Below, piece by piece: positions 40,228-61,411 of a stretch of DNA of 64,000 bases. The position numbers and the translations under genes were made by a program. Within the stretch, counting starts at the first letter, position 1. Each line of letters begins with the position of its first letter. The stretch covers positions 9,660 to 73,659 of the forward strand of contig JBLWVX010000011.1 of NCBI GenBank assembly GCA_048268245.1, in the 5' to 3' direction. The notes below the pieces were generated by a model, which ran no database searches, was not told the origin of the DNA, and saw nothing but the letters and a program-made list of their open reading frames with translations. The stretch comes from Arcobacteraceae bacterium. GTDB taxonomy: Bacteria > Campylobacterota > Campylobacteria > Campylobacterales > Arcobacteraceae.

Positions 40228-40268
40228 TTCAAGCATAATATACCTTAAGACTTGAAAGGAGATTTTAA

Positions 40269-43086: not shown

Positions 43087-43124
43087 TTTAAAAAAATAAA
43101 ACAAGTACATAAAAGGAGAAGTAA

Positions 43125-43187
43125 ATGCCTACAGTTAAAGAGGTACTAGAAGAGCAAGCAATAGAATATGAAAGAAGTGCGTTATAG
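43125..43187 (+). CDS. Possible 20-aa peptide or gene remnant
   Basis: MPTVKEVLEEQAIEYERSAL* with a well-spaced AGGAG RBS. Confidence 0.35.
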   Translation: MPTVKEVLEEQAIEYERSAL

Positions 43188-43198
43188 GGAGACCTAAA

Positions 43199-43844: not shown

Positions 43845-43855
43845 GGAGGACTACT

Positions 43856-43960
43856 ATGTCAATACATATATACAAGATGTTCTTAGCTAGAGGACACAAT
43901 AAAAAAACAGCTCAGAAGATGTATAAAAATTATATAGGAAAAATGAAGGAGGAAAAATAA
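43856..43960 (+). CDS. Small basic hypothetical protein (34 aa)
   Basis: MSIHIYKMFLARGHNKKTAQKMYKNYIGKMKEEK* with AAGGAGG RBS, packed between neighbours. Confidence 0.5.
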   Translation: MSIHIYKMFLARGHNKKTAQKMYKNYIGKMKEEK

Positions 43961-43961
43961 A

Positions 43962-44838: not shown

Positions 44839-44899
44839 ATGGGGATGATATGGCTTCGATTAGAGCATCGAGGCTTGATTGCATGTCGGCCTGAGCATG
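44839..44899 (+). repeat. attR of island 1 (restores the ssrA 5' end)
   Basis: 61-bp identity with 31471-31531. Confidence 0.95.
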
Positions 44900-45238
44900 C
44901 CGTTACGCGGCTCATTTTTTTTAGACGCAAACAATACAAATTACGCTCCAGCTTACGCAAAAGCTGCGTAAGTTTAACAACTTATAACGAGCTCCCTTCG
45001 GGTTGAGCTTTTGGAGGTTCGCTCTGTAGATTCTATCTATGCAGGATTTAGCGGATTCACCCAGATAGATTACCAAAGAGAGATTGATCGAATTTCTTTG
45101 GGACATCCTTAGATCTTAGCTTTTTAGTTGCCTTGCAGGTTGAGCTGCTAGAAAGTGAAATTTTTCAACCTCACTAAGCATGTAGACGTCAAGAGTAGAT
45201 GTTTTAAGACTCCGGTTCGATCCCGGACATCTCCACCA
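44841..45238 (+). ncRNA. ssrA: tmRNA
   Basis: 5' GGGGATG pairs with 3' CATCTCC-ACCA (G3:U alanine determinant); T-arm CCGGTTCGATCCCGG; internal tag ORF. Confidence 0.97.
44927..44971 (+). other. tmRNA proteolysis tag reading frame (A)ANNTNYAPAYAKAA*
   Basis: Resume codon GCA after TAGAC; ends in AA-TAA, similar to Campylobacterota tags. Confidence 0.9.
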
Positions 45239-45423: not shown

Positions 45424-46641
45424 ATGGCTAAAGTTATAGTACCTCTGTCAAGTACACAAATTAAAAGTGCAAAACCAAAAGAAAAAGATTATAAACTTTT
45501 TGATGGTGGTGGTTTATTTTTATTAATAGCTAAAACTGGTGGTAAAAGATGGAGAATGAAATACAGATTTAATGGAAAAGAAAAACTTATTGCATTAGGT
45601 GTTTATCCTCAAATTTCATTAAAAGTTGCTAGGGAATTAAGAGAGCAATATAAATCTATGATAGCACAAGGAATTGATCCAAACCAAGAAAAAAAACAAA
45701 AAAAAGAAGAGACTAAAAGAACTGAGGAAAAAAAAGAAAATACTTTCTTTAAAATTTCACAAGAATGGCATAAAAATTATGCAACTGAGGTATCAGAGAA
45801 TTATCATTATAAACTTGAAAGAGCATTAGAAAACTATATATATCCTTTCATAAAAAACAAAGCTATAGAAGATATAACAAGACTAGATATTATAGAAATA
45901 CTTCAAGATTTAAAGAATAAAGGTATTATAGACACAGCAAATAGAGTTTATATGCTTTTAAATAAAATATATAAATACGCGGTAACATTGGAGTATGTTC
46001 CTCATAACATAATAGCAGATATTGAGCAAAAAAATATATTAGGTAAAATAGAGAAAAAACATTATCCAACTTTTACAAAAGATGAAGACATAAAAGGATT
46101 ACTTCTATCAATTGATGAATATGAAGGTGATTATTCAACAAAAATGGCTTTAAAAATACTTCCTTATATATTTGTAAGAAGTTACAATATAAGACATGCT
46201 AAGTGGTCTGAAATAAATTTTGATACAAAAGAATGGATTATACCAGCGTCGAAAATGAAAACTAAAAAAGAATTTATATTACCTTTACCTAAAAATGTAA
46301 TAGAATTACTTTATGAAGTAAATAAGATTACAGGACAAGAAGAGTACATTTTTCCAAGTTATAGACAAAGAAACAGACCAATGAGTGACAATACTTTATT
46401 ATCAGCTATAAGAAGGATGGGATATACAAAAGAAGAATTTGTACCTCACAGTTTTAGAGCAATGTTTTCAACAATAGCATATGAAAATATGGAAGAACAT
46501 GGATATAGTAGTGAAGTTATAGAATCACTACTTGCTCATGTAGAAAAAAATAAAGTGAAAGAAGCTTACAATAGAGCATCTTATAAAAAATCAATGAGAG
46601 GATTAATCGAGTGGTATGCTAATTATTTAAAAAATAAGTAG
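45424..46641 (+). CDS. P4-like tyrosine integrase
   Basis: KDYKLFDGGGLFL...GVYPQISLKVARE arm domain; VRSYN, MK, HSFRAMFST, LAH, AYNR. Confidence 0.95.
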   Translation: MAKVIVPLSSTQIKSAKPKEKDYKLFDGGGLFLLIAKTGGKRWRMKYRFNGKEKLIALGVYPQISLKVARELREQYKSMIAQGIDPNQEKKQKKEETKRTEEKKENTFFKISQEWHKNYATEVSENYHYKLERALENYIYPFIKNKAIEDITRLDIIEILQDLKNKGIIDTANRVYMLLNKIYKYAVTLEYVPHNIIADIEQKNILGKIEKKHYPTFTKDEDIKGLLLSIDEYEGDYSTKMALKILPYIFVRSYNIRHAKWSEINFDTKEWIIPASKMKTKKEFILPLPKNVIELLYEVNKITGQEEYIFPSYRQRNRPMSDNTLLSAIRRMGYTKEEFVPHSFRAMFSTIAYENMEEHGYSSEVIESLLAHVEKNKVKEAYNRASYKKSMRGLIEWYANYLKNK

Positions 46642-47086: not shown

Positions 47087-48673
47087 ATGTCAAAACTTGA
47101 GTCTTTAATTGAAAAACTGTCTAAATCTTCACCTGAAGCAGTAAATACTCTAAATAGTAGTACAGATGAAATTATAGAATATCTTCATATAGAAACAGAT
47201 ATTGAAGAAAGATATTTAGAGTTACTAAAGCAAAATAAACAAAATAAATGTTTAATTTTTCTTTGTGGTAGTAGTGGTGATGGTAAATCAGCCATTATAA
47301 ACAGACATATAAATACTTTTAAAGATTCTTATAATTTTCATGTTGATGCAACTCACAGTTTTAAACCAAATCAAACTGCAATTGAAGCTTTAACTGAAAG
47401 TTTTAAGAAATATCAAAATGATAATAAATCTTTAGTTATTGGAATTAATATTGGTATCATGTTAAATTTTACAGACCATCTAATATCAGAACTTGAAGAA
47501 ATACAAAAAGCAATCAAAAAATTTTTAGATCAAAAAAAAGATAGTAAAAACGTCTATTTTATTAACTTTGAAAACTATTCTAAATTTAATTTTCAAGATA
47601 ATAAAATAGAATCTCCTTTCATAAAAAAATTATTGAATAAAATTACAATTGAGTCTGATGATAATCCTTTCTTTAAAGCTTTAATTGAAGATAACAAATC
47701 TAATATAAGTTCAATAGTACATCAAAACTATAGATTATTATCAAACAATTATCTACAAAATGAAATTATTAATTTACTTATTCTTTCTAATCTAAAATAT
47801 GATCAGTTTTTAACAATAAGAAGTCTTTTAGATTTTATTTATATCTTATTAAAAGGACCCAATTTATTGGTTAATCAGATCTTTGAAGATACTTCAAATG
47901 ATATTATTAAAAATATAAAAAAAGAAGACCCCATATTAAAAAGATCTTTTTTATTAGATAAGTTTATACTTGAAAGATTTAGTTCAAAAAAAGATGATTC
48001 TTTAAATAGATTTATTGATGAATTTAATGATCTATTTAAAAAAGAAATTTTAGACTCAAAATGTCCATTTACTCTGATAAGGACATTTTTTATATTTAAA
48101 GAAATGGAAATTTCAAATAATTATCATAAAAACTTTTTAAAAGACTTCGACAATGCTGAATTAATAAATTTTGTTGAATTGATATCAATTCATAGAGACT
48201 ATAGAGAAGAGCATAGAAAAAGAGTAAAAGAATTCTATGAAAAAGCTATTAAAGCTATTTATATTTTTATCAATAAAAACTATCCTGATTTAGTTAAAAA
48301 AAGTTTTGTAGTTTTATCTTCAGATAAAGAATTAACAATCTCTGCATATGCAAAGATATTACCTAATTGGAATATTATTAAATCTTCAAAAACTGATTCA
48401 TTTAGATATTTTCCTTTTTATCTAAAAATTAATGGTGAAGAGTTAGAAAAAGAAATCCATATTACACTGAATATGTACCTTATGATTAACCTAATTAATA
48501 ATGGATATAGACCAAATAAACATGATAGAAACACAATTATTATCTTTGAAGAATTAATTGAATCCGTATTAGAATCTGCCGTACATTCTGATAAATTAGC
48601 AATCATAAAAAAAGATATGATAAAAACATTTTCTAAAGATGAAGATGAAATAGAGGTAGATGATGAAATCTAG
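47087..48673 (+). CDS. dndF: Phosphorothioation-dependent restriction protein DndF/DptF
   Basis: LSKSSPEAV, LCGSSGDGKS, DATHSF, IGINIG, GYRPNKHD. Confidence 0.9.
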   Translation: MSKLESLIEKLSKSSPEAVNTLNSSTDEIIEYLHIETDIEERYLELLKQNKQNKCLIFLCGSSGDGKSAIINRHINTFKDSYNFHVDATHSFKPNQTAIEALTESFKKYQNDNKSLVIGINIGIMLNFTDHLISELEEIQKAIKKFLDQKKDSKNVYFINFENYSKFNFQDNKIESPFIKKLLNKITIESDDNPFFKALIEDNKSNISSIVHQNYRLLSNNYLQNEIINLLILSNLKYDQFLTIRSLLDFIYILLKGPNLLVNQIFEDTSNDIIKNIKKEDPILKRSFLLDKFILERFSSKKDDSLNRFIDEFNDLFKKEILDSKCPFTLIRTFFIFKEMEISNNYHKNFLKDFDNAELINFVELISIHRDYREEHRKRVKEFYEKAIKAIYIFINKNYPDLVKKSFVVLSSDKELTISAYAKILPNWNIIKSSKTDSFRYFPFYLKINGEELEKEIHITLNMYLMINLINNGYRPNKHDRNTIIIFEELIESVLESAVHSDKLAIIKKDMIKTFSKDEDEIEVDDEI

Positions 48674-49970
48674 ATTAAATAACATTACAGTAAATGATAT
48701 TGGATCAAAAAATGATGTTAAAAATTTTTATCCTTTTACAACTAAAGATGATAGAAACAAAATACAGTTTTCATTTAACCAAATTATAGGACTTATGATT
48801 TCATATATTTCGTCAAAGAAATTACATGATTTTGAATATGAAAACTTCAAAGATAACTGCATAAAAAAACTTGAAGAATGTATTGATGATGACGAAGCCA
48901 TAAAATTATTAGAAAACGTTTATTTTAAAGATAACTCTATAGCTATTGATTCTTTATTAACAAAACAAATTGATATTGCCGAGAATAAATCAAAAAAAGT
49001 ATTTGAAATATTTAAAGAACTAATTAACGAACAAAATTTAGATATAAGATTTGACTCTAATTTAAACTTTTTAGAACAGATAATCGAAAATCAATTAAAA
49101 TCAGAACTTGTAAAAACAAATTTTAGCAATAAAAGAGGATCATACTTAAAGTTTTTGGAAAAAGTATTTATAAAAGATTTAGAGTTTTTAAGTTCTAATA
49201 AACACTACTTTAATAAATCACTAGAGAGTTTTTTAGAGCTATACCTATTTATTTATTGTTCTCAATTGGCTCTAAATATTCAGCCTGTTGAAAATGCTTT
49301 ATCAACACCTTCATCAAAAGAATTATATTTTATTCTAAATAATGAAACAGCAAGTAAAGAAAGAAAGAAAATTGAAGAGTTTGGATATAAAAAACTCTAT
49401 GATAAAGCTAAATATATTTTCCCTTACTTTTCACTTTTATCAGTTTTCTCTAAAGTCCTAGAAAAAGAAAACCTAAAACTTTTTGAACTAGAAAATATCT
49501 TTCAGGAAGAAGATAAAGAGCTAATAGATAGTTTTCATGAAAAATTTAGAGAAGCTAAAAAACTAGAAAAACTTGAAATAGCTTCTAAATCATTGAATGA
49601 AGCTATTCATTCATTATTTAAATCTTCTTTTGAACAATTTCAAGAGGGGAATCAAGTAGATAGAAAAAATGCTTTAGATAAGTATTTAAAAGCATTTGAA
49701 AAGCAAGCAGCAAAACCTTTTTTAATCAATAGAGGAAGAGCTGGGAAAGTATTAGTTTTAGATCAAGATATATTAATTTTATTAACGAACGTATCAATTG
49801 GCAAAGAGAAAAAAATTAGATTTCATGAGTTAATAAATGAGTTTAATAAAAGAGGTGTTTATTTTGACCTAAAGTCTCAAGCAGAATTAATAAATACATA
49901 TGAAAAAATTGGAAATATAGAGAGAAAAAGTGATAGTGGAGATGCAGTTTATGTTAAAACAACAATATAA
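48660..49970 (+). CDS. dndG: Phosphorothioation-dependent restriction protein DndG/DptG
   Basis: YCSQLAL, ASKER, RGRAGKVL, RGVYFD, GNIERKSDSGDAVYVKTTI. Confidence 0.9.
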   Translation: MMKSRLNNITVNDIGSKNDVKNFYPFTTKDDRNKIQFSFNQIIGLMISYISSKKLHDFEYENFKDNCIKKLEECIDDDEAIKLLENVYFKDNSIAIDSLLTKQIDIAENKSKKVFEIFKELINEQNLDIRFDSNLNFLEQIIENQLKSELVKTNFSNKRGSYLKFLEKVFIKDLEFLSSNKHYFNKSLESFLELYLFIYCSQLALNIQPVENALSTPSSKELYFILNNETASKERKKIEEFGYKKLYDKAKYIFPYFSLLSVFSKVLEKENLKLFELENIFQEEDKELIDSFHEKFREAKKLEKLEIASKSLNEAIHSLFKSSFEQFQEGNQVDRKNALDKYLKAFEKQAAKPFLINRGRAGKVLVLDQDILILLTNVSIGKEKKIRFHELINEFNKRGVYFDLKSQAELINTYEKIGNIERKSDSGDAVYVKTTI

Positions 49971-52900
49971 TGATTTTTTAGTAGATATACTTTACAAATG
50001 GTTATCAAATAATATAAAAGAAGGTCATAGGTATAAATATTATTCTGAAAATCATGAATATTTAAAAAGACTTTCTAATTCATTTCATAAATATAATTTA
50101 GAGAATTTAATACATAAAGATAATAAACTATGCTATATAAAGATCAATGAAGTAAAACTGATAATCTTATCTGAATTAGAAATGAACAATGGTTTTATTT
50201 CTAATCTTAGAGATGAAAAAATAAAAAATTCTTCACTGTTGATATTTGATACTTCAAAAATCGATACATTAGATAGTACAACAATAAATTTAGAGTTAGA
50301 AGACTATCCTTTAAACCCAATTCTTATTAAAGATTATTTAGAAACACTTATTAACGAAGAGACTAAATACCCAACACTTTTTAAGTACTTACTTGAATAT
50401 CAAACTAAATTTCTAATTGCTGAAGAACAATCTGCATTTGGATATGAAGCTTTATACAATTCGGTAATCGATAATAAGATTAATTTTCAAGCTTTTGAAT
50501 TATTTAAAGATGAAGATCTATATAATTTAGAAAATGATAAAAAAAGTATTGAAAAAAGAATAAAAGACAATGAAGAAAGATATAGAAAGATTAAAGATAC
50601 TATTATAAATTTTCCAAATGAATTAGATGAAAAACTTCAAAGCTATTCACCTGAATTTATAAAAGATAAAATTACAATCAATGATTGGCCAGATTTAACA
50701 TACAATGACTTAAAAAATGAAGAAGAAAATAATAAAGGTCAAAAAATATCTTTTGACAAAATAGTAGAAAATATGTTTGGTGTTAAAACTTTTATTAGAA
50801 GTACTAGTTCAAGTGCAGCGGGACAAAGAGCCCAAAATATCATCATTTTTACAAAAGACTCAAATTTTTCTTTATCTTTTAAATTTAATGGTTATGGAAT
50901 TAAAACTTCTGAATTTTCAACAGATGCAAAAAATTTAACTACTGAACTAAAATATGATGGAGGGAAAAGAGAGCTTACTTTTAGTGTAAAAGATTATGAT
51001 TTTACACCTAATTTTTTTAATATAAACCTAAAAAGAATTAAAACTTCAGAAAACCATAAATTTAGAGTTTTATTGGTAAATGAAAATGATTTTAATCTTG
51101 ATTTAATAAAAAATCATTTCATTATAAAACCTAAAGAAAAACATATATTGTTACAACTAGATGAAGATGAATTTAATCTTGACTTTAATCCAAATAAAAA
51201 TACTTCTATTAAACTTGAAAAGGACAAACAAGAAATAGATATAGAAACATTCGGAAAAATCGATATTGAGGAATATTACAAAAACAATGACGAGGTTAAC
51301 TTTACTATAAAAAATGGAACTAATACTTTAACTTTTTTTGTAGAGGGATCTAAAGATGAAGATGAGTTCCCAATTCCATTTCTTTTTGATAAAAATAGAG
51401 CAAAAGCAAATAGATTATTTAACGACAATAAAAACACAGAATTTAATAAATTAAAAAATAAAGCTATTTATGATGGTAGAGAAAAAACTATTGGAGGAGA
51501 AAGACTTAATTATATAAAATATGAACAAGAATTTATAGACAAGAATAAATTTATTTTGAATACTCAAATTGATTCAGATATATCTCATTTAGAAAATATT
51601 GACCAAAATATTTATTCTTCATTTAAAGATTTAATTTCATACTTTAGAGATAATAGAACGACACCTTCTTTATGTGCTTGGAATGATGAACTATTTGAAC
51701 TTTCAGAGATATTTATAAACTCTTACTTAGAATATATGAAAAATATAGAAGAAAATATTTTCTTATCTAATGATGTTATCACTCTTTTTGAATTTGGTTT
51801 CGTATATAAAGAAAATAAAAAAATGATGTCACCATTTTCCCCACTAATTCTTTCATATATAATTAATTTAGTAAAAGAAGTCAAAGAAGATGAATCGTTT
51901 AAAAACTTGTCTGATGTGACATTAAATAGATTAAATGCTAAGGGATTATTTCCATATCTTTACATAAATTCTGAGAATTATGCATTTACAAATGTAGTAA
52001 AAGAAAATTCACTATGGTTAGAATTTATTCCAAATGAGGAAAATGAGTTTTCATATATCAAAAAACTTAGTCTAGAAAAGATTGATGAATTCACAAGTTC
52101 ATTTCAAGACTTATTTGAATTTAAAAAAGATGCTCCACTCATAATCAATAGTATTAATAATTCAAAGAATGAAGAACTGTTTGAAGGAATTGTAACTTTC
52201 TATAAAAAAACAATCAAAGAATCAAAAACACCCATAAAAACAATAGTAAATATCTATGATGAAAACTATCACTTTACATCATTTGATCTATTTGCAGATC
52301 TTGACAAATATGATGATATAAAAAATAAGTTTTCATTTATCAAAAAAGATGACGATAGTTTAATTGATATTATTCGAACTAATTTAAGCTACAGTAAACA
52401 TAATATTGATGAAGAACAAAATTACAGTCACCTGTCATTTTTCAAAAACAATGAAAGAGTGCAAATACAAGAAAGAACTTTCGAACAAACAAAATCAGGT
52501 TTGCTTTCAAATGGTTTAATATCCGGAGAAAGTTCACAAAAAGATGAAAAGTTTTATTACAGTGGGTTTGGACTTAAGAATGTACAAGATTTAACTAAAT
52601 CACATATTCAATTAGCAAAGATATATAACTCTATGCAAAAAGCTGTTTATAATCCTGGGGCAAACTACAAATCTAATGAAAATATTTCTTTAATGATTAG
52701 TGAAAACTTTAGAACTCTTTTAAAAAAATCATATAAAAGTTCTTTATGGACAGTAGTAATTGACCCTAAAGTAACTCTTGATTTCTTTGATAATGAAGAA
52801 AACCTTATCTTAATTCATTATTCTGATCAATACAGTTCATCTGCAAACTATGATGCAGTAACAGTAACTGCCCAAAAAGAATTATATTCAAATGTTTTAT

Positions 52901-55005
52901 TTGAAGAATTAGGAAATATAGATAAAGAAAATATTGTAAAACAATTTAATGCATTCAATGGTGAATGGTTAATTAAAATGATTACAGAAAATGATAAGAA
53001 TAAAAAAGAAAAAGAATCAATAATTTCTGCATACAAATATATGACCTCTCTTGTAGATACAGATGAAATTACATGGGTACCTATGTCAGTTGCTGAGATG
53101 ATAAGAGTTTCAGGAAATGTTGGACTATCGATGTCCGATAGTGATTTTTCAAGATACAATGAATCTAAAAATGATGAAGATTCAAAACTAAATAAGGGTG
53201 CTATTTCAGATGATATTCTTCTTGTTGGATTTAAAGATGACCATGTAATTTTATACCCAGTTGAAGTAAAATCAAGTAGTGCAGACATAAAAAAAGCAAT
53301 AGAACAATCAAAATCTCTTAGAAACTTTTTCTATGAGCATCTTTTTGAAGGGAATAGTTTAAAAACTAGACTTCTAAAAGGTCTCTTTATAAGACAAGTA
53401 TTTATGCAAGTAGAGAAATATGAGCTTTATGATATTTTTGATGAGTCTTATTTTAATCCATTATATGAAAAAAGAGAACAACTACTAGATGGTGAATTTA
53501 AACTAATAGATTTAGATAATTACTCTAAATGTTCAGTGATTGCATTCTTAGAAAAAGAATACAATACTACAATGAAAATTGAAGAGGATATTGTCTTAAA
53601 AATTCAAATGCCATATCCATTTCAAAAGCAAATGATTCACTTATCATATGATGAACTAAAAGATAAAGTTTACAATGGTACTTTTGGTGGAAATGAAAAA
53701 TTCATATTATCAAAAACAAGCGAAACAAAAAATGAACCTAATGAAAGTACTACAACAATACAAACTATAGAACAAGAAGAAAATTTAGAAGAATCTATAG
53801 AAGAAATACCTAATGAAACTACTATTGATACTAAGCCTACAGAATCGCTAAAACCAATAGAAATTAAATTTGGTATGGATAGTATAGAACACGAAGAGAT
53901 TTTTTGGTATCCAACAGATACAAGACAAAATCAAAATACTAATACAGGTATCATAGGTACTATGGGTACAGGTAAGACTCAATTTACAAAATCACTTGTA
54001 ACACAACTAGTTAATCAATCTTCAAATAATGTAGGTGCATCTAAAATAGATATGATTATCTTTGACTATAAGGGTGACTATATTGGAGAAGACTTTGTAA
54101 ATGCAACTAATGCAACTGTGTATGAACTTGAAAAACTTCCTATAAATCCTTTAGAATTATTTGGGAACAAGCCAAAACTTCCTACTCATACGGGTAGGAC
54201 TTTAACAACTACATTAGCAAAAGCTTTTAATCTTGGTAATGTTCAAAAATCAATCCTAAAAAATGCAATACAAAATGCTTATCAAGAAAAAGGTATAGAG
54301 TCATCAGATAAAGATACTTGGAATTTAACTGCTCCAACTTTAGAAGATGTATGGGATTTATATACTCAAAGTGATGATGTCAAACAAGATTCTCTTTATG
54401 CCGCCCTTGATGATTTGATAGATTTTGAGATATTTGAAAGTGATACATCAAAAACAAAATCACTTTATGATGTGATTGATGGCGTTACAGTTATGAATCT
54501 ATCAGGATATGACTCAAATATACAAAATCTTGTAGTAGCAATTATTTTAGACCTTTTTTATGTACAAATGCACAATAGAGGTTCTTCAAGCGTAGATGGT
54601 GATTTTAGACAAATTACTAAAATGATACTTGTAGATGAAGCAGATAATTTTATGTCTCAAGATTTTGATAGTCTGAAAAAAATACTTAAAGAAGGTAGAG
54701 AGTTTGGAGTAGGAACAATACTATCAACTCAAGAATTAACACACTTTAAAACTTCAGAAGATAATTATGCAAACTATATCTTTACTTGGATAGTACATAA
54801 AGTGGCAAATATCAAAACACAGGATATTCAATCTATTTTTAATATTAATAGCAAAGTAGAAGCAGAAGGACTTATGAGTCAAGTCAGAGAACTTCAGAAA
54901 CATTATAGCTTTTATGTAGATGGAAATAAAGAAATTAAAAAGATGCGTGACTTAGCATTTTGGGAACTAAATAAATTATTACGAAGAGAGAAAAATGGAA
55001 TATAA
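49930..55005 (+). CDS. dndH: Phosphorothioation-dependent restriction protein DndH/DptH (likely start ATG 49951)
   Basis: DPKVTLDFF, IHYSDQY, FNAFNGEWL, nuclease SDDIL...PVEVK, HerA/FtsK-like GTMGTGKT, FDYKGDY, DEAD, EGREFG. Confidence 0.92.
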   Translation: MIVEMQFMLKQQYNDFLVDILYKWLSNNIKEGHRYKYYSENHEYLKRLSNSFHKYNLENLIHKDNKLCYIKINEVKLIILSELEMNNGFISNLRDEKIKNSSLLIFDTSKIDTLDSTTINLELEDYPLNPILIKDYLETLINEETKYPTLFKYLLEYQTKFLIAEEQSAFGYEALYNSVIDNKINFQAFELFKDEDLYNLENDKKSIEKRIKDNEERYRKIKDTIINFPNELDEKLQSYSPEFIKDKITINDWPDLTYNDLKNEEENNKGQKISFDKIVENMFGVKTFIRSTSSSAAGQRAQNIIIFTKDSNFSLSFKFNGYGIKTSEFSTDAKNLTTELKYDGGKRELTFSVKDYDFTPNFFNINLKRIKTSENHKFRVLLVNENDFNLDLIKNHFIIKPKEKHILLQLDEDEFNLDFNPNKNTSIKLEKDKQEIDIETFGKIDIEEYYKNNDEVNFTIKNGTNTLTFFVEGSKDEDEFPIPFLFDKNRAKANRLFNDNKNTEFNKLKNKAIYDGREKTIGGERLNYIKYEQEFIDKNKFILNTQIDSDISHLENIDQNIYSSFKDLISYFRDNRTTPSLCAWNDELFELSEIFINSYLEYMKNIEENIFLSNDVITLFEFGFVYKENKKMMSPFSPLILSYIINLVKEVKEDESFKNLSDVTLNRLNAKGLFPYLYINSENYAFTNVVKENSLWLEFIPNEENEFSYIKKLSLEKIDEFTSSFQDLFEFKKDAPLIINSINNSKNEELFEGIVTFYKKTIKESKTPIKTIVNIYDENYHFTSFDLFADLDKYDDIKNKFSFIKKDDDSLIDIIRTNLSYSKHNIDEEQNYSHLSFFKNNERVQIQERTFEQTKSGLLSNGLISGESSQKDEKFYYSGFGLKNVQDLTKSHIQLAKIYNSMQKAVYNPGANYKSNENISLMISENFRTLLKKSYKSSLWTVVIDPKVTLDFFDNEENLILIHYSDQYSSSANYDAVTVTAQKELYSNVLFEELGNIDKENIVKQFNAFNGEWLIKMITENDKNKKEKESIISAYKYMTSLVDTDEITWVPMSVAEMIRVSGNVGLSMSDSDFSRYNESKNDEDSKLNKGAISDDILLVGFKDDHVILYPVEVKSSSADIKKAIEQSKSLRNFFYEHLFEGNSLKTRLLKGLFIRQVFMQVEKYELYDIFDESYFNPLYEKREQLLDGEFKLIDLDNYSKCSVIAFLEKEYNTTMKIEEDIVLKIQMPYPFQKQMIHLSYDELKDKVYNGTFGGNEKFILSKTSETKNEPNESTTTIQTIEQEENLEESIEEIPNETTIDTKPTESLKPIEIKFGMDSIEHEEIFWYPTDTRQNQNTNTGIIGTMGTGKTQFTKSLVTQLVNQSSNNVGASKIDMIIFDYKGDYIGEDFVNATNATVYELEKLPINPLELFGNKPKLPTHTGRTLTTTLAKAFNLGNVQKSILKNAIQNAYQEKGIESSDKDTWNLTAPTLEDVWDLYTQSDDVKQDSLYAALDDLIDFEIFESDTSKTKSLYDVIDGVTVMNLSGYDSNIQNLVVAIILDLFYVQMHNRGSSSVDGDFRQITKMILVDEADNFMSQDFDSLKKILKEGREFGVGTILSTQELTHFKTSEDNYANYIFTWIVHKVANIKTQDIQSIFNINSKVEAEGLMSQVRELQKHYSFYVDGNKEIKKMRDLAFWELNKLLRREKNGI

Positions 55006-55600
55006 ACTAGATTATGTTGAATTTAAAGAAAATGTTGCTGATAGTGTTTCAGAAGGTGCTGGTATTTATCAAATTATAGCATTGCCATTTTCAGAAAAAA
55101 TTAAAATTGATGATATTGATATGCTACATGGTTATGTAGATTATTGCCAAAACTCTTTTTTACATTCTTGGGAAAATAAAGTTAAAGCAAAAACCCTTTT
55201 TAAGGACAGAAAGATACAAATAGAGATGAATAAAATTTACCCTAAGCAAATTAAGAACTCTGAACAATATATAAAGGATAAAAGTAAAAAAGAGTTAAGA
55301 GAGTTTTTTTTACAATTTTTACCATTTTTACCTTCATTATATATTGGGATCGCAGATAATTTAAAAAGACGTTTTCAAGACCATACAAGAATTACAGATC
55401 AAGATAGTACTATTTACAAGATTACAAATGATACGGAATATAAAATTTTTTCTGATGCAAAAATTTATTTTATTTGGAAAGAAATTGAAACTGGCTCTTT
55501 GCCAGATGGAGTCAAATTAAGAGAAGATATTTTAGAAGACTTTGAAAGAGTTATGATACAAACAAGAAAACCACTAATTAATAAAGTAAAAAGGAAATAA
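54995..55600 (+). CDS. GIY-YIG nuclease-like protein with a long insertion between the GIY and YIG motifs
   Basis: AGIYQI (aa ~22) ... LYIGIADNLKRRFQDH (aa ~115) ... FERVMI...KPLIN; overlaps the dndH stop. Confidence 0.72.
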   Translation: MEYKLDYVEFKENVADSVSEGAGIYQIIALPFSEKIKIDDIDMLHGYVDYCQNSFLHSWENKVKAKTLFKDRKIQIEMNKIYPKQIKNSEQYIKDKSKKELREFFLQFLPFLPSLYIGIADNLKRRFQDHTRITDQDSTIYKITNDTEYKIFSDAKIYFIWKEIETGSLPDGVKLREDILEDFERVMIQTRKPLINKVKRK

Positions 55601-55602
55601 TT

Positions 55603-57000
55603 ATGAGTGAAGATTCAATAGATTTATCTGGAGAGGAAAGTGTAGAGGATTACTTTTGTCAAAAAGGTGAGTTTACAAATGTTACTTATTATATGACATC
55701 ACTTAGTTTAGCTGAAGCAGCAGATGGGTTAAATTATGAAAATGAGATTTTAACAGATGGTTCATTTGCAGAAAGAATGCAAAGAGATATTAATGAAAAA
55801 AGAGCTCAAGAAGAAATTTATGAAGGTTACTTAAAACATAATGGAACTAGGTTTTTTAATGCATTAGTAGTTACTTTTATTCCAGAGACTAATGATGATT
55901 CAGGTTATTTAATAGAAAAAGAATTAGGAAAAGATTTTGTAAAGTTGAGTGTAAAAAAGAGTGTAAAGAAACTTGTGTTAGATGGACAACATAGACTATT
56001 TGCATTAAGATCATTAAGACATGATATTTTAACAAAAAAAGTAAATGATCCCGAATTGAAAAGAATTAAAGTGCCTGTTGTTTTTGTATCTTTCTCTAAC
56101 TTAGATAATAATATCACAGATATAACACCTATTAGGCAAGATATTATAAGTGAAACTAGAAATGTCTTTATTTCGCTAAATAAAACAGCAAAGAAAATAG
56201 ATAAATATACTGCATTAATAACTGATGATAGTGATTTATCAGCCGTATCTGCAAGAAGGTTATTGGAGACAGGAAGAATAGATGAAATATTTGTAAAGTG
56301 GGCTATCCCAAATCATGCATTAAGTCAGTATGACCCTTATTTCACTACATTAAATTTTTTAAATGATTGTTTTGATGTATGTGAATCAAATTTTAATACA
56401 TCCATAGAAGATGAAAAGAAGTCATTATCAAATGACGAAAAAGAAAAACTAATAAATGAAAAATATTTTGATTTTGTTGAGGAACTAGGATTTACTCCAA
56501 GTATTTTAATTGAAGACTTTTTTATAAAAAATAACTTTTTTAATGAATGGAAACAGTCATTAGAGACTATAACTTTACCAAAACAACCTTCTTTACCAGA
56601 ACTTTCAAAGGATGATAGACTATTAATTAAATCAATAAGATCAAATAATATATTAGCAACTATAGCTGGACAAAAAGCATTATTTCTTGCCATAGTAAAT
56701 TCATTTAATTTAATGGGAGACGATACTGAAGAGAAAAATGAAAACATTTTTTCCAGAATCAATGAATTACATTCGAAAGAATTCTTTAATAGAGAAAGTG
56801 ATATTTGGAAATTAATATTAGTTAGAAATGATAAAAACAAAAGTATGATTTTTAAAATTAGTAATATTTTAATTGCACAAAAACTAATAAGTTTTGTACT
56901 TTTAAAGAAAGAAAAAGAATGTCAAGTCTTTTGTAATTCTATAGTCGAAGATATAGGTATTGATAATAAGTTTTCACTACTTAGTGAATATTTAAAATAA
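55603..57000 (+). CDS. DGQHR-domain (DndB/ParB-like fold) protein
   Basis: MQRDINEKRA, YL, FFNALVV, LDGQHRLFAL, FISLNKTAK. Confidence 0.88.
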   Translation: MSEDSIDLSGEESVEDYFCQKGEFTNVTYYMTSLSLAEAADGLNYENEILTDGSFAERMQRDINEKRAQEEIYEGYLKHNGTRFFNALVVTFIPETNDDSGYLIEKELGKDFVKLSVKKSVKKLVLDGQHRLFALRSLRHDILTKKVNDPELKRIKVPVVFVSFSNLDNNITDITPIRQDIISETRNVFISLNKTAKKIDKYTALITDDSDLSAVSARRLLETGRIDEIFVKWAIPNHALSQYDPYFTTLNFLNDCFDVCESNFNTSIEDEKKSLSNDEKEKLINEKYFDFVEELGFTPSILIEDFFIKNNFFNEWKQSLETITLPKQPSLPELSKDDRLLIKSIRSNNILATIAGQKALFLAIVNSFNLMGDDTEEKNENIFSRINELHSKEFFNRESDIWKLILVRNDKNKSMIFKISNILIAQKLISFVLLKKEKECQVFCNSIVEDIGIDNKFSLLSEYLK

Positions 57001-57010
57001 GAGATACTAT

Positions 57011-57748
57011 ATGAGAGAATTTTATTATAAAAATAAACTAATCGTTTTACTTATATTAATTGTTATAGCTTTTATAGTTCACATAGCCATATATGAACTA
57101 AATTTCAAACTTTTAGTAGAGACTTTAATTTTTGCATTTATTGCATTTGTTTTCTTTGATTGGGTAGCAAATGTTACTACTAAAAAAGAATTATTTGAAA
57201 ATTTATTTAGAATGATGAAAAATCATAATGATAACATTGATATGGGGTTTGAAAGAGTGATTTTAAATGCTGGTAAAATTGATTATAAAGAGTTAATAAA
57301 TAAATCATCAAATATTTATATATGCCAAATATATGGAAGACAGTGGCTTAGTAATTATAAAAGAGCCATCATAGAAAAGTTAAGTAATGATCCAAATGCA
57401 AAAATACATTTTCTAATTTATGATGAAAAAAATGTATCTATAAAAGGTTATTCTCATTTATTTACTGAAGGTTCTAAAAAGAAACTATCTTCAAAAATTA
57501 AAGAAAGTTTAGAAATATGTGAGTCAATAAAAGAGATTAAACCTTCTCAAGTGAAAATTACAAAAGTTAAAGATAGACCTCTTATAGGTGCAATTTATAT
57601 CTTTGACAATTACTTAATTCAAATTCCTTTATCTGTATCAAAAAAAGATTTTTCAAACTTTATTGCATACGAATTTGAAAAAACTGAAAATGAAAATGAT
57701 GGATATAAAGTATTTAAATCACAAGTTGAAGAATTAATAGAAAATTAA
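57011..57748 (+). CDS. 2-TM membrane protein with a degenerate PLD-like (DUF5919-like) cytoplasmic domain
   Basis: Two N-terminal hydrophobic helices, then IDYKELINKSSNIYICQIYGRQW, KIHFLIYD, AIYIFDNYLI; no HxK motif. Confidence 0.55.
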   Translation: MREFYYKNKLIVLLILIVIAFIVHIAIYELNFKLLVETLIFAFIAFVFFDWVANVTTKKELFENLFRMMKNHNDNIDMGFERVILNAGKIDYKELINKSSNIYICQIYGRQWLSNYKRAIIEKLSNDPNAKIHFLIYDEKNVSIKGYSHLFTEGSKKKLSSKIKESLEICESIKEIKPSQVKITKVKDRPLIGAIYIFDNYLIQIPLSVSKKDFSNFIAYEFEKTENENDGYKVFKSQVEELIEN

Positions 57749-58146
57749 AGAAACTCCTGTTTAATCCATTCAAAAATATTACTATTTTCATTTAGTGAAG
57801 AGGCTAAAATGTTAAAGCCTCTTTCACAGTGTTGTTCTAGTTTTAGTTCAAGACCTCTAAGAGTATTTACTTTTTTCTTCTCATAGTTAGATATAAATAA
57901 AGCTATCATATCAGTATAGTCAGCTTGTACACCTTGTGTATCTACTTTGCCTTTACCTGTTATAACATCAAGAGCATAAGTTTTACCATCTTTGAAATCT
58001 ATTTTTTCACTTGAATCTAACTCTTCCTCAATTGATAATGAAATAAATATAGCAAATCTTATAGTTACCCATCTAGGATCTTTTTCAAAACCTAAAAGTT
58101 TAGCTATTCTTGGGATCTGTAGTTCTGTATGTGCAGTTGTTCTCAT
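57745..58146 (-). CDS. dndE: DNA sulfur modification protein DndE
   Basis: Small protein directly after dndD; RFAIFISL and HCERG motifs of the DndE family. Confidence 0.75.
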   Translation of the reverse strand: MRTTAHTELQIPRIAKLLGFEKDPRWVTIRFAIFISLSIEEELDSSEKIDFKDGKTYALDVITGKGKVDTQGVQADYTDMIALFISNYEKKKVNTLRGLELKLEQHCERGFNILASSLNENSNIFEWIKQEFL

Positions 58147-60105
58147 TTATTTATACCTATTTTCAAAAAAGTCTGATTTATTTTGTTCATTCATTGATGT
58201 GGCTGAACCTTGGTTTGATAATGTAAAGATTTGAGATATTTCATCTTTTAAGTTTTTAAATCCTTCATGTCTTAATTCACTTGGTGTTGGTAATATTAAC
58301 ACTTGTGATGAAGCATTTGGATAGAATTGATTTAAAATAAGCGATTGGTTCTTTTCATCAAGTCTTCCAAGAGGAGTATCAATAATCATAGGTATTTCTT
58401 CTGAAATATATTCAGATATTCCCCAGATAAGTGCAGTTGCAATTACTTGTTTTTGCCCTGATGAACTAGATAGTATATCCATTGCTCTTTGATTTTTATC
58501 AAATACATTTATATTAAAATCATTATCTAAAACAATTTTATCTGCTTCATAACCTTCTTTTTTAAGTAAGTTAAATTTAATGTTAATAGACTCTTCTAAC
58601 ATTTCTCTTTTATCTTCTTTTATTTTTTCTTTCATTTGTTTAGATACTTTAATAGTAGCTTCCAAAGATTCTATTTTGATTTTTGCTAGAGAGTTTTGAT
58701 GATCTTGAATACTTGTTTTTGCAATTTCTCTTTCTATTTCTTTTTTATCTAAGCTTAGTTGATTAAGTTTATTTTCTAACTCATTTATCCTTTCTTTTTG
58801 TACACCAATATCTTGAGCTATAAGTTTAACTTTTTTAAAGTCTTCTTCATACTCTTTCTTATCATCTTGCATTTGAAGTTCTAGTGAGTATATCTCATCT
58901 TCATAGTGTTTAATATCATCTTTTATTGATATTAATCTATCTAGAATATTTGACAAACTTACTTCTTTTAGTTCTTTGTATTGTGCTTCAATTTTTATAG
59001 AATCAGCAAAAGGTACACTCTGCTTATTATTTTCAGAGTTAAATACCTTATCAAATATCTTTTCAATAGAGTCTTTTTGTGAGTCTTCTATTTGAGATAA
59101 AAACTCTTTTCTTTTAATATCTATAATATTTTTAGAAATAGATATATTACCTTTATAGTTTTCATTTAAATCTTTACTTACTTTTTCTTTTAGTTTTCTA
59201 TTTAAAAGTAAAGGAAGCTGAATATAACTTAACTCTTTAAACGTAGTCAGATACTTCTGTTTCTCTTCTTCAAGATTAGATAGATTTTCTTTTGCTTCTT
59301 TCAAAGGTTTTTTATGTTTACCTTCTAACTTTTTAAGTCTTTTATCTAATTGATTTTCTTGTGAAATTAATTCTTTAAGTTTTAAAGTCTCTTCTTTTAA
59401 ACTTTCTTCTTTTTCTTCTATTGCTGATTTTATATTCTCTAACTCTTCTTCTTTTTGAGTTAGTATCTTTTGAAGTTCTGGATTCAACTCTTGCTTGTTA
59501 ATCTTTTTTATTACATTTTCAGAGTCCATTACTAATTGATCATAAATATCTAGCTCTAAAACATCTTCAAGCATTTGTCTAAATTCATCTTTACTAAAGT
59601 CTGCAATAGTTTGAATCTTTTCTCCATCAAAGAAAAAGAATTTTGCTAAAGTAGGAGAGATTTTATAGTTTATAAAGTCTTGTGCTTCATAATCATAAAA
59701 GAAACTTTCATTTTCAAAATCTTGTATAGTTAATTTTTCATTGTAAGAGTTATCAGATATACTAAATTCTCTTTTTATTCTATATAAACCACCATCTTCT
59801 AACTCTATAATGATTGAAGCTTTGTTTTTACCTTCTGATTTTGCAATTCTATTTAAAACACCACTAAAATTTTTTGTAGAACTACCAATAATGTAGTCTT
59901 GTTTACTAAGAGTTAATTCACCTATTTGAAGTAAATCTTTTGTAATACCATGTAATGCAATTTTTATAGAATTAATAAATGAAGTCTTACCAAATCCATT
60001 TTCTCCAATTATAAGAGAGATTGGTTGTGATGCATTATTAAATTCAAACTTTATTTGTCCATGATATGAAAATAAGTTGTTAATAGTTATTGATTTAAAC
60101 TTCAT
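58147..60105 (-). CDS. dndD: DNA sulfur modification protein DndD (SMC-like ATPase)
   Basis: NLFSY, GENGFGKTS, FFFFDGEKI, coiled coil, SSGQKQ, IIDTPLGRLD. Confidence 0.92.
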   Translation of the reverse strand: MKFKSITINNLFSYHGQIKFEFNNASQPISLIIGENGFGKTSFINSIKIALHGITKDLLQIGELTLSKQDYIIGSSTKNFSGVLNRIAKSEGKNKASIIIELEDGGLYRIKREFSISDNSYNEKLTIQDFENESFFYDYEAQDFINYKISPTLAKFFFFDGEKIQTIADFSKDEFRQMLEDVLELDIYDQLVMDSENVIKKINKQELNPELQKILTQKEEELENIKSAIEEKEESLKEETLKLKELISQENQLDKRLKKLEGKHKKPLKEAKENLSNLEEEKQKYLTTFKELSYIQLPLLLNRKLKEKVSKDLNENYKGNISISKNIIDIKRKEFLSQIEDSQKDSIEKIFDKVFNSENNKQSVPFADSIKIEAQYKELKEVSLSNILDRLISIKDDIKHYEDEIYSLELQMQDDKKEYEEDFKKVKLIAQDIGVQKERINELENKLNQLSLDKKEIEREIAKTSIQDHQNSLAKIKIESLEATIKVSKQMKEKIKEDKREMLEESINIKFNLLKKEGYEADKIVLDNDFNINVFDKNQRAMDILSSSSGQKQVIATALIWGISEYISEEIPMIIDTPLGRLDEKNQSLILNQFYPNASSQVLILPTPSELRHEGFKNLKDEISQIFTLSNQGSATSMNEQNKSDFFENRYK

Positions 60106-61411
60106 TTATTTTTCCTAATGCGTATGCTTCAACAGTTTCTTCAATATCTGTAAATACTCCAGATCTTTTAAGTTGATGTCTATATTTATGTTCAGTTTGG
60201 ATTAGCTTATCCATAAGTTCAATTTGAATACCATTTTCTTCACATAGTGATTTAAAGTAATCTTGTTCTTCATTTGAAAAAGCTTTTTTAGACTCATGTC
60301 TAATATTTCGTCCATATCTATTTGCAAGACTTATTGCTGTTTCAAAGAAGTCTCCATCGTGAAGCCATTCTTTTTGAATCTGAATAATATCCTCATCTGA
60401 TATAAGGTATCTTCCCTCAAGATTATTAAGTAGGTCTTTTTCTATTTTTAAAAGTTTTTTAAAAAGTTCTTGTCTCGTAGCCATTGTAAATGGACCGAAA
60501 CCTTTTTGCCCATTTCTCCTAATAGATTGTCTTTTCCCTGAATCAACTTCTCTATATTTTTCTAGAATATTTCTAAACTTATGAAGTGGCGTCATCCATT
60601 TATCTTCTTTATGTCTAAGCATATTCTCCATAGACTTATCTTTTGAAACTACAGTACAAACCCAACAACCAAATCTAGTTTTCCCACATGATGGAGACTC
60701 TGGATTTAATGCAATATTACAATCAGCTTCACCACTACCTTTGTCATATAACTTCATCATATCATCATGGCTACCCCATGGTGCTTTATATGTACTTAAA
60801 AAACTCCATACTTCTGGATTAGTCCAATGTTTTACAGGAGATAATACAAATGCATTAGGAACATTGTCATGTTTTACTAGTCCTCTATGATTTCTATCTC
60901 TTTTCTCAATAGATTTTGCTCTTGTTTGTGATTCATCACTTCTTACACCAAGCAACATCAAAATTGATTTATTATTTGTTGAAAGTGAAGTTAAAAACTT
61001 TGTTGCAGGTTTTATTTTTAGTCTGTCTGTACACCATCTAAAGCTCTGATTTGGAGAAGGATACCCTTTACCTAGTAATAATGGCCAATATGAATCTTTT
61101 GATTCAGGAGATACAACAGCTACTTGCATATTTAATTGATGTTTATTTATAAATTTTCTTAATTCATCAATTTTCTTATGAAAATATTTATCGATAACAG
61201 GCATTTCTACTCTAGTATCAGATGATACTATATATACTGTTTTTGTATCTTTGTTTTCTTTTTTTAATTCTTGTATTACTTCAACTGTTAAATGTAATAC
61301 AGTAGATGAGTCTTTCCCACCAGAAAATGTAACAACCCATGGTCTATCATCTGCTAAATATTGTTCTTTTAATAATTGTTTAGTTTCTTCAATTCTTTCT
61401 GTAAGGTTCAT
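60095..61411 (-). CDS. dndC: DNA phosphorothioation sulfurtransferase DndC
   Basis: PWVVTFSGGKDS, DTRVE, GKGYPSP, RWCTDRLKIKP, GVRSDES, SCGKTRFGCWVCTVV. Confidence 0.95.
   Translation of the reverse strand: MNLTERIEETKQLLKEQYLADDRPWVVTFSGGKDSSTVLHLTVEVIQELKKENKDTKTVYIVSSDTRVEMPVIDKYFHKKIDELRKFINKHQLNMQVAVVSPESKDSYWPLLLGKGYPSPNQSFRWCTDRLKIKPATKFLTSLSTNNKSILMLLGVRSDESQTRAKSIEKRDRNHRGLVKHDNVPNAFVLSPVKHWTNPEVWSFLSTYKAPWGSHDDMMKLYDKGSGEADCNIALNPESPSCGKTRFGCWVCTVVSKDKSMENMLRHKEDKWMTPLHKFRNILEKYREVDSGKRQSIRRNGQKGFGPFTMATRQELFKKLLKIEKDLLNNLEGRYLISDEDIIQIQKEWLHDGDFFETAISLANRYGRNIRHESKKAFSNEEQDYFKSLCEENGIQIELMDKLIQTEHKYRHQLKRSGVFTDIEETVEAYALGKINEV

Follow-up and report, generated by a model that had tools for sequence, protein, structure and literature searches.

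Among the proteins known from phosphorothioate (PT) loci, two are close counterparts of the genes described here. DndI unites a ParB-like NTPase with a nickase; according to the available text of PMC11662687, it shares a transcript with dndFGH, and PT stimulates it. Canonical DndB is a demonstrated repressor (PMC4507180). Below we describe a Dnd locus in which a GIY-YIG nuclease gene, a DGQHR gene and a gene for a two-helix membrane protein follow dndFGH, and compare it with these and other systems.

Layout of the locus

The window, meaning the whole stretch of DNA analysed, comprises 64,000 nt from an Arcobacteraceae bacterium (GCA_048268245.1, JBLWVX010000011.1, positions 9,660–73,659, forward strand). 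NCBIfam, PADLOC and Pfam identify the flanking genes as DndF/G/H and DndC/D/E, and the reading direction of dndFGH runs on into the three genes of interest:

44841–45238 and 45424–46641, + strand: tmRNA gene, then tyrosine integrase; left edge of the island
47087–55005, + strand: dndF (47087–48673), dndG (48660–49970) and dndH (49930–55005); restriction module
54995–55600, + strand: GIY-YIG (URI) endonuclease gene, 201 aa; nuclease half of the pair
55603–57000, + strand: DGQHR (DndB-like, ParB/Srx-fold NTPase) gene, 465 aa; putative sensor/regulator half of the pair
57011–57748, + strand: 2TM-PLD gene, 245 aa, in a variable slot; C-terminal PLD/TrmB-like (DUF5919-related) domain, non-catalytic
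57745–61411, − strand: dndE (57745–58146), dndD (58147–60105) and dndC (60095–61411); phosphorothioate writer, convergent

We infer that the island carrying the Dnd locus spans from the tmRNA/integrase edge to the contig end. The first-pass annotation of this DNA had described three ORFs outside canonical dndFGH, with their spacings and a TTAA overlap, and all of this is present. The GIY-YIG gene overlaps dndH by 11 nt, gaps of 2 nt and 10 nt precede the DGQHR and 2TM-PLD genes, and the end of the latter and the stop of dndE, which converges on it, share positions 57745–57748 (TTAA). This last overlap carries no evidential weight, because two converging stops yield it in DNA of 25% GC. The three genes are real rather than chance ORFs, since homologues exist in 10 (GIY-YIG), 54 (DGQHR) and 5 (2TM-PLD) other protein clusters. 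The island contains neither dndA nor dndB, and the upstream neighbour of dndC is a resolvase gene. Canonical dndB is missing from the whole genome, where the DGQHR gene is the sole PF14072 match. The PADLOC check that had been suggested for the three genes was run and no model matched their proteins at E ≤ 0.1, the Dzb model being assumed to be in the library.

The nuclease and DGQHR proteins

The first gene encodes a GIY-YIG superfamily member, as judged by its motifs, its catalytic Arg and Glu, and its fold. Its Pfam GIY-YIG score of 21.4 bits lies just under the cut-off of 22.6, and the GIY and YIG tyrosines are separated by 91 residues, including an insert of ~85 residues. Y116, G118, R126 and E184 are intact in the window protein. 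Together with Y25 and H130 they are invariant in 19/19 nuclease sequences, and the same four are unchanged in 17/17 nucleases across 14–30% identity. All five best fold matches are of GIY-YIG type (T4 EndoII, Z 7.7, rmsd 3.2, 107 aligned), the Foldseek top match is Eco29kI (E 0.022), and PD-T4-3, a GIY-YIG enzyme titled a 5hmC-specific endonuclease, is also among the fold matches (Z 4.3).

The second protein has an intact NTPase motif and scores above the cut-offs of PF14072 (49.6 bits, cut-off 29.1) and TIGR03187 (61.2 bits). It matches neither the DndB equivalog TIGR03233 nor the PADLOC DndB model, nor TIGR04172 (PT-associated DGQHR protein 1), a model that matches L058 at 356 bits. In a tree of 31 rows it falls into a clade separate from canonical DndB; a branch (95/98) places 12/12 insert-type partners together on one side, and DndB is set apart (100/100). 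The missing TIGR03233 match, the separate clade and the convergent position rule out that it is canonical DndB. The Salmonella DndB box TACG-N10-CGTA has 0 matches with 0.02 expected and is uninformative for so divergent a protein.

Recurrence of the pair in other loci

Outside loci were collected by protein homology alone and not by PT context. The coupled GIY-YIG and DGQHR pair recurs in 16/18 readable loci, and 13 of these 16 pairs adjoin dnd, ssp or pbe phosphorothioate genes. A GIY gene stands directly upstream in 8/9 readable loci of the window's ~470-aa DGQHR subtype, 3/4 of the ~700-aa subtype and 5/5 of the short-GIY subtype, and directly upstream of none of the 7 canonical dndB genes whose upstream DNA could be read. 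The intergenic gap is ≤4 nt in 13/16 measured pairs, window included. Partner identities co-vary (Spearman 0.485, 17 pairs, 0/2000 permutations), a figure inflated by kin. A complex prediction for the two proteins gave 0.33 vs 0.00 for the best control and weakly supports an interaction: 18/157 solved complexes, and both of the passing mismatches, passed at ≤0.60, contact agreement between runs was at least 0%, and partner pLDDT was at least 67. Our literature search found no published description of the pair.

The window's DGQHR subtype is also present in ssp loci (L004, L005, L014), and in L026 the pair lies directly 3' of sspABCD, with no sspE annotated within the 14.8 kb examined. Canonical dndB and the pair coexist in L027, L030 and L055, all of sister subtypes; dndB is absent from the examined flanks of every locus of the window's own subtype. 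There are exceptions to the pairing. L002 and L056 carry a DGQHR gene without GIY, and no GIY match was found upstream of the DGQHR gene in L006 (345 nt) or L016 (510 nt). In L028, whose 17 kb contain no writer, the pair adjoins sspFGH; in L022 there is no adjacent PT gene.

The membrane protein

The third protein has two hydrophobic helices (residues 10–28 and 34–52) and a C-terminal domain with the PLD fold but without HKD. Its fold matches reach Z 12.2–12.8 with rmsd 2.5–2.8 over 122–135 residues, and the fold is common to the TrmB/TrmBL2 effector-binding domain, the PLD nucleases NucT/SauUSI and DUF5919. In the window protein and 96 rows, P-x-x-S/A-x-Y-x-F-D stands in place of the catalytic HxKxxxxD motif of PLD-superfamily enzymes. 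The family lacks HxK and carries N-terminal membrane helices where TrmB/NucT/SauUSI-type relatives have an HTH or helicase. Pfam finds no DUF5919 (PF19319) match in the window protein; the domain is found in 1/96 relatives (E 0.00088), and an Atlas cluster with 31% DUF5919 matches at 0.94.

The first-pass annotation had treated the three genes as one module and proposed to survey neighbourhoods for the trio or a pair. The pair recurs as described; the trio as a conserved unit does not, since the 2TM-PLD gene is present in 0/29 outside loci scanned (a set that includes duplicates and fragments) and its slot elsewhere is taken by genes of at least seven other types. On indirect grounds the trio is probably intact in near relatives, so a functional link between membrane protein and pair is possible.

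On 8/8 distinct viral contigs, the gene for a distant relative of the membrane protein immediately precedes one for a deoxydinucleotide-nuclease (diDNase)-like protein. These contigs carry one related partner group (support 86), found with a profile from the same group, and the tie of the window protein to this clade is distant and poorly resolved. A diDNase was found in 0/6 actinobacterial loci with homologues, and a full-length copy of the 2TM-PLD gene in 0/73 distant exonuclease loci. The window does not hold a cassette of this kind: dndE converges downstream, no diDNase adjoins the 2TM-PLD gene, no profile match occurs in the island's last 13.7 kb, and a genome-wide search returned distant exonuclease matches only. 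The diDNase pairing of its relatives suggests that the protein could be a dinucleotide-gated effector. The earlier idea that the DGQHR protein activates it finds no support here, the visible partner of the family elsewhere being a diDNase-like exonuclease.

Interpretation and alternatives

What was envisaged at first pass, an additional DGQHR and nuclease layer on the Dnd system, is still the reading we prefer, given that the two genes are conserved together, co-diverge and are linked to phosphorothioate loci. The nuclease motif, the DGQHR motif, translational coupling, co-divergence and the preference for all PT locus types are directly visible. On these sequence-based grounds, with a probability of roughly 0.45, we favour the pair as a split DndI/SspE-like PT accessory arm and the 2TM-PLD gene as a separately acquired variable-slot gene. 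By analogy, the pair is best read as a split functional counterpart of DndI/SspE in which a ParB-fold NTPase would gate a nuclease, here placed behind dndFGH. The two proteins would bind each other, and the DGQHR subunit would bind DNA and NTP. PT on self DNA would stimulate hydrolysis and hold off or release the nuclease, and incoming DNA without PT would be nicked or cut. The 2TM-PLD protein may be a ligand-gated membrane effector or sensor that responds to short products of nucleic-acid breakdown and has no fixed link to this unit.

Pairs such as those in L028 and L022 weigh against a strictly self-PT-dependent nuclease, which would not predict them. They fit a guard or toxin–antitoxin arrangement, which we consider unlikely overall: the DGQHR protein would restrain the nuclease until a phage that inhibits Dnd/Ssp or drains NTPs frees it to destroy host DNA in abortive infection, PT marks not being read. 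Translational coupling and co-divergence agree with such restraint, L002 and L056 would resemble antitoxin-only remnants that lost GIY, and the available text of PMC10853773 proposes, by inference only, stand-alone URI suicide back-ups and a DndB guard. However, the nuclease gene stands first in the pair, and the characterised PT effectors that combine a ParB fold with a nuclease (DndI, SspE) read PT directly, as far as the accessible accounts describe them. The same writer-less loci are also consistent with a pair that cuts or processes PT DNA, either as a type IV-like nuclease that attacks invaders bearing PT, or as a nickase in PT turnover or repair. GmrSD-type ParB-fold sensors that trigger cutting of modified DNA (PMC10952713 and PMC12065111, in the parts available) and the fold match to the 5hmC-specific PD-T4-3 point the same way, but most pairs adjoin an intact writer and such cutting would be self-destructive unless directed to another sequence context or tightly gated; we hold this very improbable.

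DGQHR genes upstream of dndCDE, the usual place of dndB (L002, L003, L006, L008–L010), count against the favoured split accessory arm. They would suit a DndB substitute that represses dndCDE or limits its ATP, with the nuclease and membrane protein as passengers or independent back-ups. The window genome (G000) encodes no further DndB, relatives in Campylobacterota are found upstream of dndCDE (directly so in L006, and without GIY in L002), and repression by DndB itself is established. Against this stand the separate clade, the missing DndB matches, the presence of the subtype in ssp loci and the orientation convergent to dndCDE; it would also leave unexplained the coupling to a nuclease whose catalytic residues are invariant at 14–30% identity, and we regard it as quite improbable. 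The three products might instead act as one signalling chain. PT-linked dinucleotides resist nucleases. The GIY-YIG pair, DndFGH or phage nucleases would yield deoxydinucleotides, perhaps PT-linked, whose binding to the PLD-like domain would open or aggregate the membrane helices and kill the cell; the 2TM-PLD protein would then be a linear deoxydinucleotide receptor coupling DNA cutting to membrane killing, and might read PT dinucleotides from the degraded chromosome. Such a chain, receptor included, appears rather improbable. The 2TM-PLD gene is missing from 29/29 outside loci, no diDNase is adjacent in the window, and GIY-YIG enzymes are endonucleases and are not known to produce dinucleotides. 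The trio probably kept in near relatives would fit, as would the 8/8 viral contigs set beside the 0/73 exonuclease loci, although those contigs represent a single related partner group retrieved with its own profile. In the part of the PMC11706625 supplement available, the first cluster of diDNase neighbours includes XRE regulators, a single DUF5919 protein, and accessions that neighbour two clostridial diDNases. There is also precedent: deoxydinucleotides activate ApeA and a diDNase relieves the toxicity (bioRxiv 10.64898/2026.01.26.701840), and a 2TM effector is activated by Cas13-made dinucleotides (PMC13692257).

If our preferred reading is true, the pair would add a third PT-coupled effector design to DndFGH and the DndI/SspE fusions, a small one that takes two genes and escapes PADLOC. 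It would offer the first direct test of the proposal that DndB-like ParB proteins, besides repressing, work together with nucleases. The pairing of membrane protein and diDNase-like gene provides a handle on a question raised in PMC11706625 and the ApeA preprint, namely the purpose of diDNases and the identity of other deoxydinucleotide sensors, and the two-gene prophage cassette is separately testable. Were the dinucleotide reading true, the sulfur mark would also serve as an intrinsic danger signal, and membrane effectors and the HTH regulators next to diDNases would have a dinucleotide sensor in common, the DUF5919-like domain.

Comparison with known systems

TdpABC consists of two DGQHR proteins and a DndC-like writer, whereas this genome has one PF14072 gene. 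Dazbog had been named at first pass as a system with a DGQHR/DndB domain, and as a possible identity of the first two genes. Its domain is DUF262 according to the available text of PMC10952713 and PMC12065111; as none of our three proteins contains DUF262, this identity fails on domain content. The overall layout of the membrane protein, two membrane helices and a soluble domain, is reminiscent of the Cap15-like 2TM-beta effectors of CBASS, Panoptes and Cas13, the last a case of nuclease-made dinucleotide signalling (PMC13692257). Those effectors carry a beta-barrel, whereas the window protein has a PLD-like alpha/beta domain, and the locus has no cyclase or Cas13. CBASS/Pycsar-type effectors further differ by an adjacent nucleotide cyclase, which no neighbouring gene encodes here, and by a beta-barrel, SAVED or cNMP-binding sensor in place of the PLD fold. 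In the diDNase cassettes (PMC11706625, PMC13464484), diDNase-like genes are flanked by the membrane protein's family, while the window lacks a diDNase; a term search of the main texts shows an HTH protein as partner and no mention of a membrane or PLD-fold one. ApeA provides a demonstrated deoxydinucleotide anti-phage signal, but is itself a HEPN RNase.

Canonical DndB shares the DGQHR motif and PF14072 domain, and relatives of the window gene are often upstream of dndCDE. It measures ~360–390 aa vs 465 aa, and its gene opens the dndBCDE operon, whereas the window gene converges on dndCDE, reads the same way as dndFGH and is coupled to a nuclease gene. PMC10853773 places URI/GIY-YIG proteins among the nucleases at Dnd locus edges, with suggested back-up suicide roles and a DndB guard; its available text describes no fixed URI and DndB-like pair or Ssp presence, and its supplementary dataset may show such neighbourhoods.

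The closest resemblance is to DndI (IscS-DndBCDE-DndI; PMC11662687, available text) and SspE, in which a ParB-fold NTPase with a nuclease is an optional supplement to a PT writer. The placement is similar, with dndFGH (11-nt dndH overlap) or 3' of sspABCD elsewhere. Membership in DndI/SspE/GmrSD is excluded by DGQHR in place of DGQQR, by no DUF262 at E ≤ 0.1 (Pfam) and by a nuclease on a separate GIY-YIG gene. Whereas DndI and SspE each join DUF262 (DGQQR) and a DUF1524 HNH domain in one chain, the window has two genes, one for a PF14072 DGQHR protein and one for an insert-bearing GIY-YIG nuclease.

Setting of the three-gene locus

The first-pass annotation had placed three tightly packed genes at the end of the dndFGH operon, overlapping dndH by 11 nt, spaced by 2 and 10 nt and sharing a TTAA stop overlap with the convergent dndE. 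All three open reading frames and every junction were recovered as described. The trio sits between dndFGH on the forward strand and the convergent dndCDE on the reverse strand:

54995-55600, forward, GIY-YIG gene (gene 1)
55603-57000, forward, DGQHR gene (gene 2)
57011-57748, forward, 2TM-PLD gene (gene 3, the TM gene)

We infer that the Dnd island opens with a tmRNA gene followed by a tyrosine integrase and reaches the contig end. Gene content and relatives suggest that the host is a low-GC member of the Campylobacterota, probably of the Arcobacteraceae. Neither dndA nor dndB lies in the island, and the genome (G000) carries an IscS-like gene outside it. G000 is the sole match of the DGQHR profile among 184 family genomes and again among 401 genomes of a phylum sample, and of the TM profile among the 184, which marks the locus as rare. 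No PADLOC model matched any of the three trio proteins. A promoter scan gave an uninformative 88 sites where 111.5 were expected, repeat scans of three intergenic regions found nothing above AT-rich chance, and the GC content of the TM gene (22.5%) is not separable from that of dndF (22.2%). No sequencing run is listed for 54000-59000, which bears neither way on expression.

The DndD gene (58147-60105) has as its top PADLOC model one labelled PbeC (1056 bits), while its position and NCBIfam match identify it as DndD; given this label, automated calls may misname the Dnd locus. A second mobile stretch lies left of the tmRNA gene; its integrases and restriction-modification set were named from reading translations:

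31672-44414, second mobile stretch, with resolvase, RNase H-like, KilA-N and Bro-N genes
31672-32904 and 38662-39819, integrases
32911-38587, type I restriction-modification set

The GIY-YIG and DGQHR proteins

Gene 1 encodes a GIY-YIG nuclease. It falls just below the Pfam cut-off because 91 residues part the tyrosines of its GIY and YIG motifs; in short-type partners, which lack the insert of about 85 residues, the spacing read off the sequences is about 20. Residues Y25, Y116, G118, R126, H130, E184 and P193 are invariant across 19 sequences with identities down to 14%. The predicted model (pLDDT 80) has T4 EndoII, UvrC, a plant GIY-YIG-like domain, I-TevI and Eco29kI as its top fold matches, with Z-scores of 7.7-5.3, a level at which Z is not decisive by itself, and a Foldseek E-value of 0.022. 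PADLOC matched none of eight outside GIY partner proteins.

The DGQHR motif of gene 2 is invariant across 57 aligned sequences, and outside DGQHR proteins matched the PADLOC DndB or DpdB models weakly or not at all. Family membership tests rejected DndB, DndI and TIGR04172 for gene 2. Tdp was likewise rejected, gene 2 being the single PF14072 gene of G000; TdpABC comprises two DGQHR proteins and a DndC-like writer. A Dazbog pair plus passenger, named in the first-pass annotation as a refuting outcome, was rejected on domain content, as the Dazbog domain, given as DUF262 in the accessible text of PMC10952713 and PMC12065111, is absent from the trio proteins. Alignments of the DGQHR, TM-close and GIY-close groups found no relatives on viral contigs. 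At L060:6773-9929, a Dam-like methyltransferase gene follows a gene for a 771-aa DGQHR-domain protein, with no GIY or phosphorothioate (PT) genes nearby.

A conserved GIY-DGQHR pair beside PT genes

The conserved unit is the GIY-DGQHR pair. Outside loci were gathered through DGQHR homology alone, from five genome loci, 15 metagenome loci, five plasmid regions fetched of 13 matched records, ten matches in 251 Verrucomicrobiota genomes and four in 301 Actinomycetota genomes. In the subtype of the window (about 470 aa), nine distinct loci have 600 nt or more of upstream DNA, and in eight of them a GIY gene lies directly upstream (L001, L003, L004, L005, L007, L008, L010 and L014; not L002). This count excludes L006 and L016, whose shorter upstream DNA holds no GIY match, the cut-off loci L009, L012, L013 and L017-L020, and the duplicates L011 (of L002) and L015 (of L005). 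A GIY gene is also upstream in 3/4 loci of the 640-750-aa subtype (L030, L055 and L064; not L056) and in 5/5 of the subtype with insert-free GIY partners (L022, L026, L027, L028 and L063), and in none of seven readable cases for canonical dndB genes.

The intergenic gap does not exceed 4 nt in 13 of 16 measured pairs, and partner identities correlate. A single branch sets apart each of three groups in a 31-row tree: the 12 insert-type partners (95/98), the five short-type partners (93/88) and the eight canonical DndB proteins (100/100). Thirteen of 16 outside pairs adjoin PT genes, and all kinds of these are represented; the fetched DNA of L007 and L064 is too short to judge, and the L022 pair is some 10 kb away from an ssp locus.

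PT genes adjoining outside pairs
dndCDE: L001, L003, L008, L010
dndABCDE with true dndB: L027, L030, L055
ssp writers: L004, L005, L014, L026, L063
sspFGH: L005, L028

On a Ti plasmid (L028:7486-17203), the pair immediately precedes sspFGH, and the fetched 17 kb contain no PT writer. At L007:1248-3829, insert-type GIY-YIG genes flank the DGQHR gene on either side, downstream of a fragment that reads as GmrSD-like.

The TM gene occupies a variable slot

The first-pass proposal of a three-gene guard or defence module can hold within a narrow lineage at most; in the wider set, the TM gene was found in none of 29 outside loci (duplicates and fragments included) and is not part of the conserved pair unit. 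Elsewhere its slot is filled by a second GIY gene, by sspA, sspF or dndC, or by gene pairs of HepT/MntA, GHKL ATPase and two ParB-like kinds. In Campylobacterota Dnd loci, the DGQHR-to-dndC slot is a cassette hotspot (L002, L003, L008, L009 and L010), carrying either a GHKL ATPase with an unnamed 335-aa protein or ParB-like (PDC-M38A or PD-Lambda-5A-like) with unnamed nuclease-like proteins.

Three related proteins, 67-81% identical, have one contig count (15) and one longest contig (22,378 nt) in common, and one GIY and one TM relative both lie on 2,838-nt contigs, the trio itself spanning 2,754 nt. These shared figures speak indirectly against a purely accidental placement of the TM gene. 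The contigs of TM relatives at 52-58% identity correspond in size to no GIY or DGQHR match.

The TM family and a prophage cassette

Gene 3 encodes two hydrophobic helices and a PLD fold resembling TrmBL2, NucT and SauUSI (Z 12.2-12.8; model pLDDT 91.7); the HxK motif is absent from it and its family. This unnamed, DUF5919-related family has 108 representatives at E≤0.001, and the window protein, whose identity to the family core is about 20-25%, sits on a long branch in a quick tree (fork support 90). PADLOC matched 0/96 TM relatives, and tblastn found nothing with three relatives against plasmids or one against phages. Several members (P0086, P0087, P0104, P0142, P0093 and P0105) join the PLD-like domain to other heads or tails, which by motif reading include an alpha/beta-hydrolase-like N-terminus, a C-terminal NUDIX-like domain and a helical N-terminus. 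Such fusions would fit a portable ligand sensor.

A scan of viral contigs based on 15 core members of the family returned five loci, in all of which the next gene encodes a 206-214-aa DEDDy exonuclease. The reverse scan, covering the best 80 of 320 confirmed exonuclease loci, found a 2TM-PLD gene directly upstream in 7/7 close loci (at least 52% identity; three new) and a full-length copy in 0/73 distant ones, two 97-aa matches at E 0.0047 being left out of the latter count. The exonuclease ends in tyrosine on all eight distinct contigs, which carry related partners found with profiles built from that same group, and has the strict HHAxFD(L/I)xF motif in five, the others deviating at one or two positions. 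These two features are the deoxydinucleotide nuclease (diDNase) criteria in the accessible text of PMC11706625. According to that text, an HTH-protein gene adjoins two thirds of diDNase genes; in neighbour cluster 1 of its supplement, as far as available, XRE regulators are grouped with one DUF5919 protein and with accessions that adjoin two clostridial diDNases.

The resulting unnamed two-gene cassette, a 2TM-PLD-like gene followed directly by a diDNase-like exonuclease (L066-L070, L074, L075 and L077; for example L074:1644-3094 and L077:1681-3112), occupies accessory positions in Clostridia-like prophages and is itself a defence-system candidate. Its TM gene is broken into two ORFs in L070, and PADLOC matched none of three cassette TM genes. 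No diDNase was found in six loci read around actinobacterial TM homologues (seven matches in 251 genomes). A diDNase search matched seven of 401 actinobacterial genomes; one match is a stand-alone diDNase-like gene of HIRAN-HipA type with no TM-PLD neighbour, and six are longer exonuclease proteins.

Proposed function and relation to known systems

We tentatively favour, at a probability of about 45%, a split analogue of DndI/SspE combined with an independent ligand-gated membrane protein. The GIY-YIG and DGQHR proteins would bind each other, and the pair would hydrolyse NTP, read PT and cut DNA. Complex prediction for the pair (0.33 vs 0.00) lends this weak support. A guard or toxin-antitoxin pair is a serious but unlikely alternative; back-up roles have been suggested for URI nucleases at Dnd locus edges in the accessible text of PMC10853773. 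That the pair cuts PT-containing DNA is improbable.

Integrated dinucleotide signalling, for which ApeA and Cas13 with 2TM-beta provide precedent, seems rather improbable; no diDNase lies beside the window TM gene. A DGQHR protein acting as a DndB substitute, that is, as a repressor, is improbable, and retains some weight because true dndB and the pair were seen together only in sister subtypes.

The term GIY does not appear in the accessible text of PMC12704722 or PMC12839542. Literature searches, whose scope stopped short of subscription papers, bioRxiv supplements and the PMC10853773 supplement (which may show URI-DndB adjacency), returned no description of the pair, the TM family or the 2TM-PLD/diDNase cassette. 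The pair is a real accessory unit of PT systems, undescribed within that scope and tentatively assigned to the NTPase-gated nuclease kind, and the variable membrane gene would provide an unexpected, testable link to deoxydinucleotide biology. The split analogue we favour has its counterpart in DndI, an HNH nickase fused to a DUF262 NTPase and co-transcribed with dndFGH, whose ATPase is stimulated by PT and which harms PT-free cells, according to the accessible text of PMC11662687. The pair follows the logic of DndI in its parts and shares its setting.
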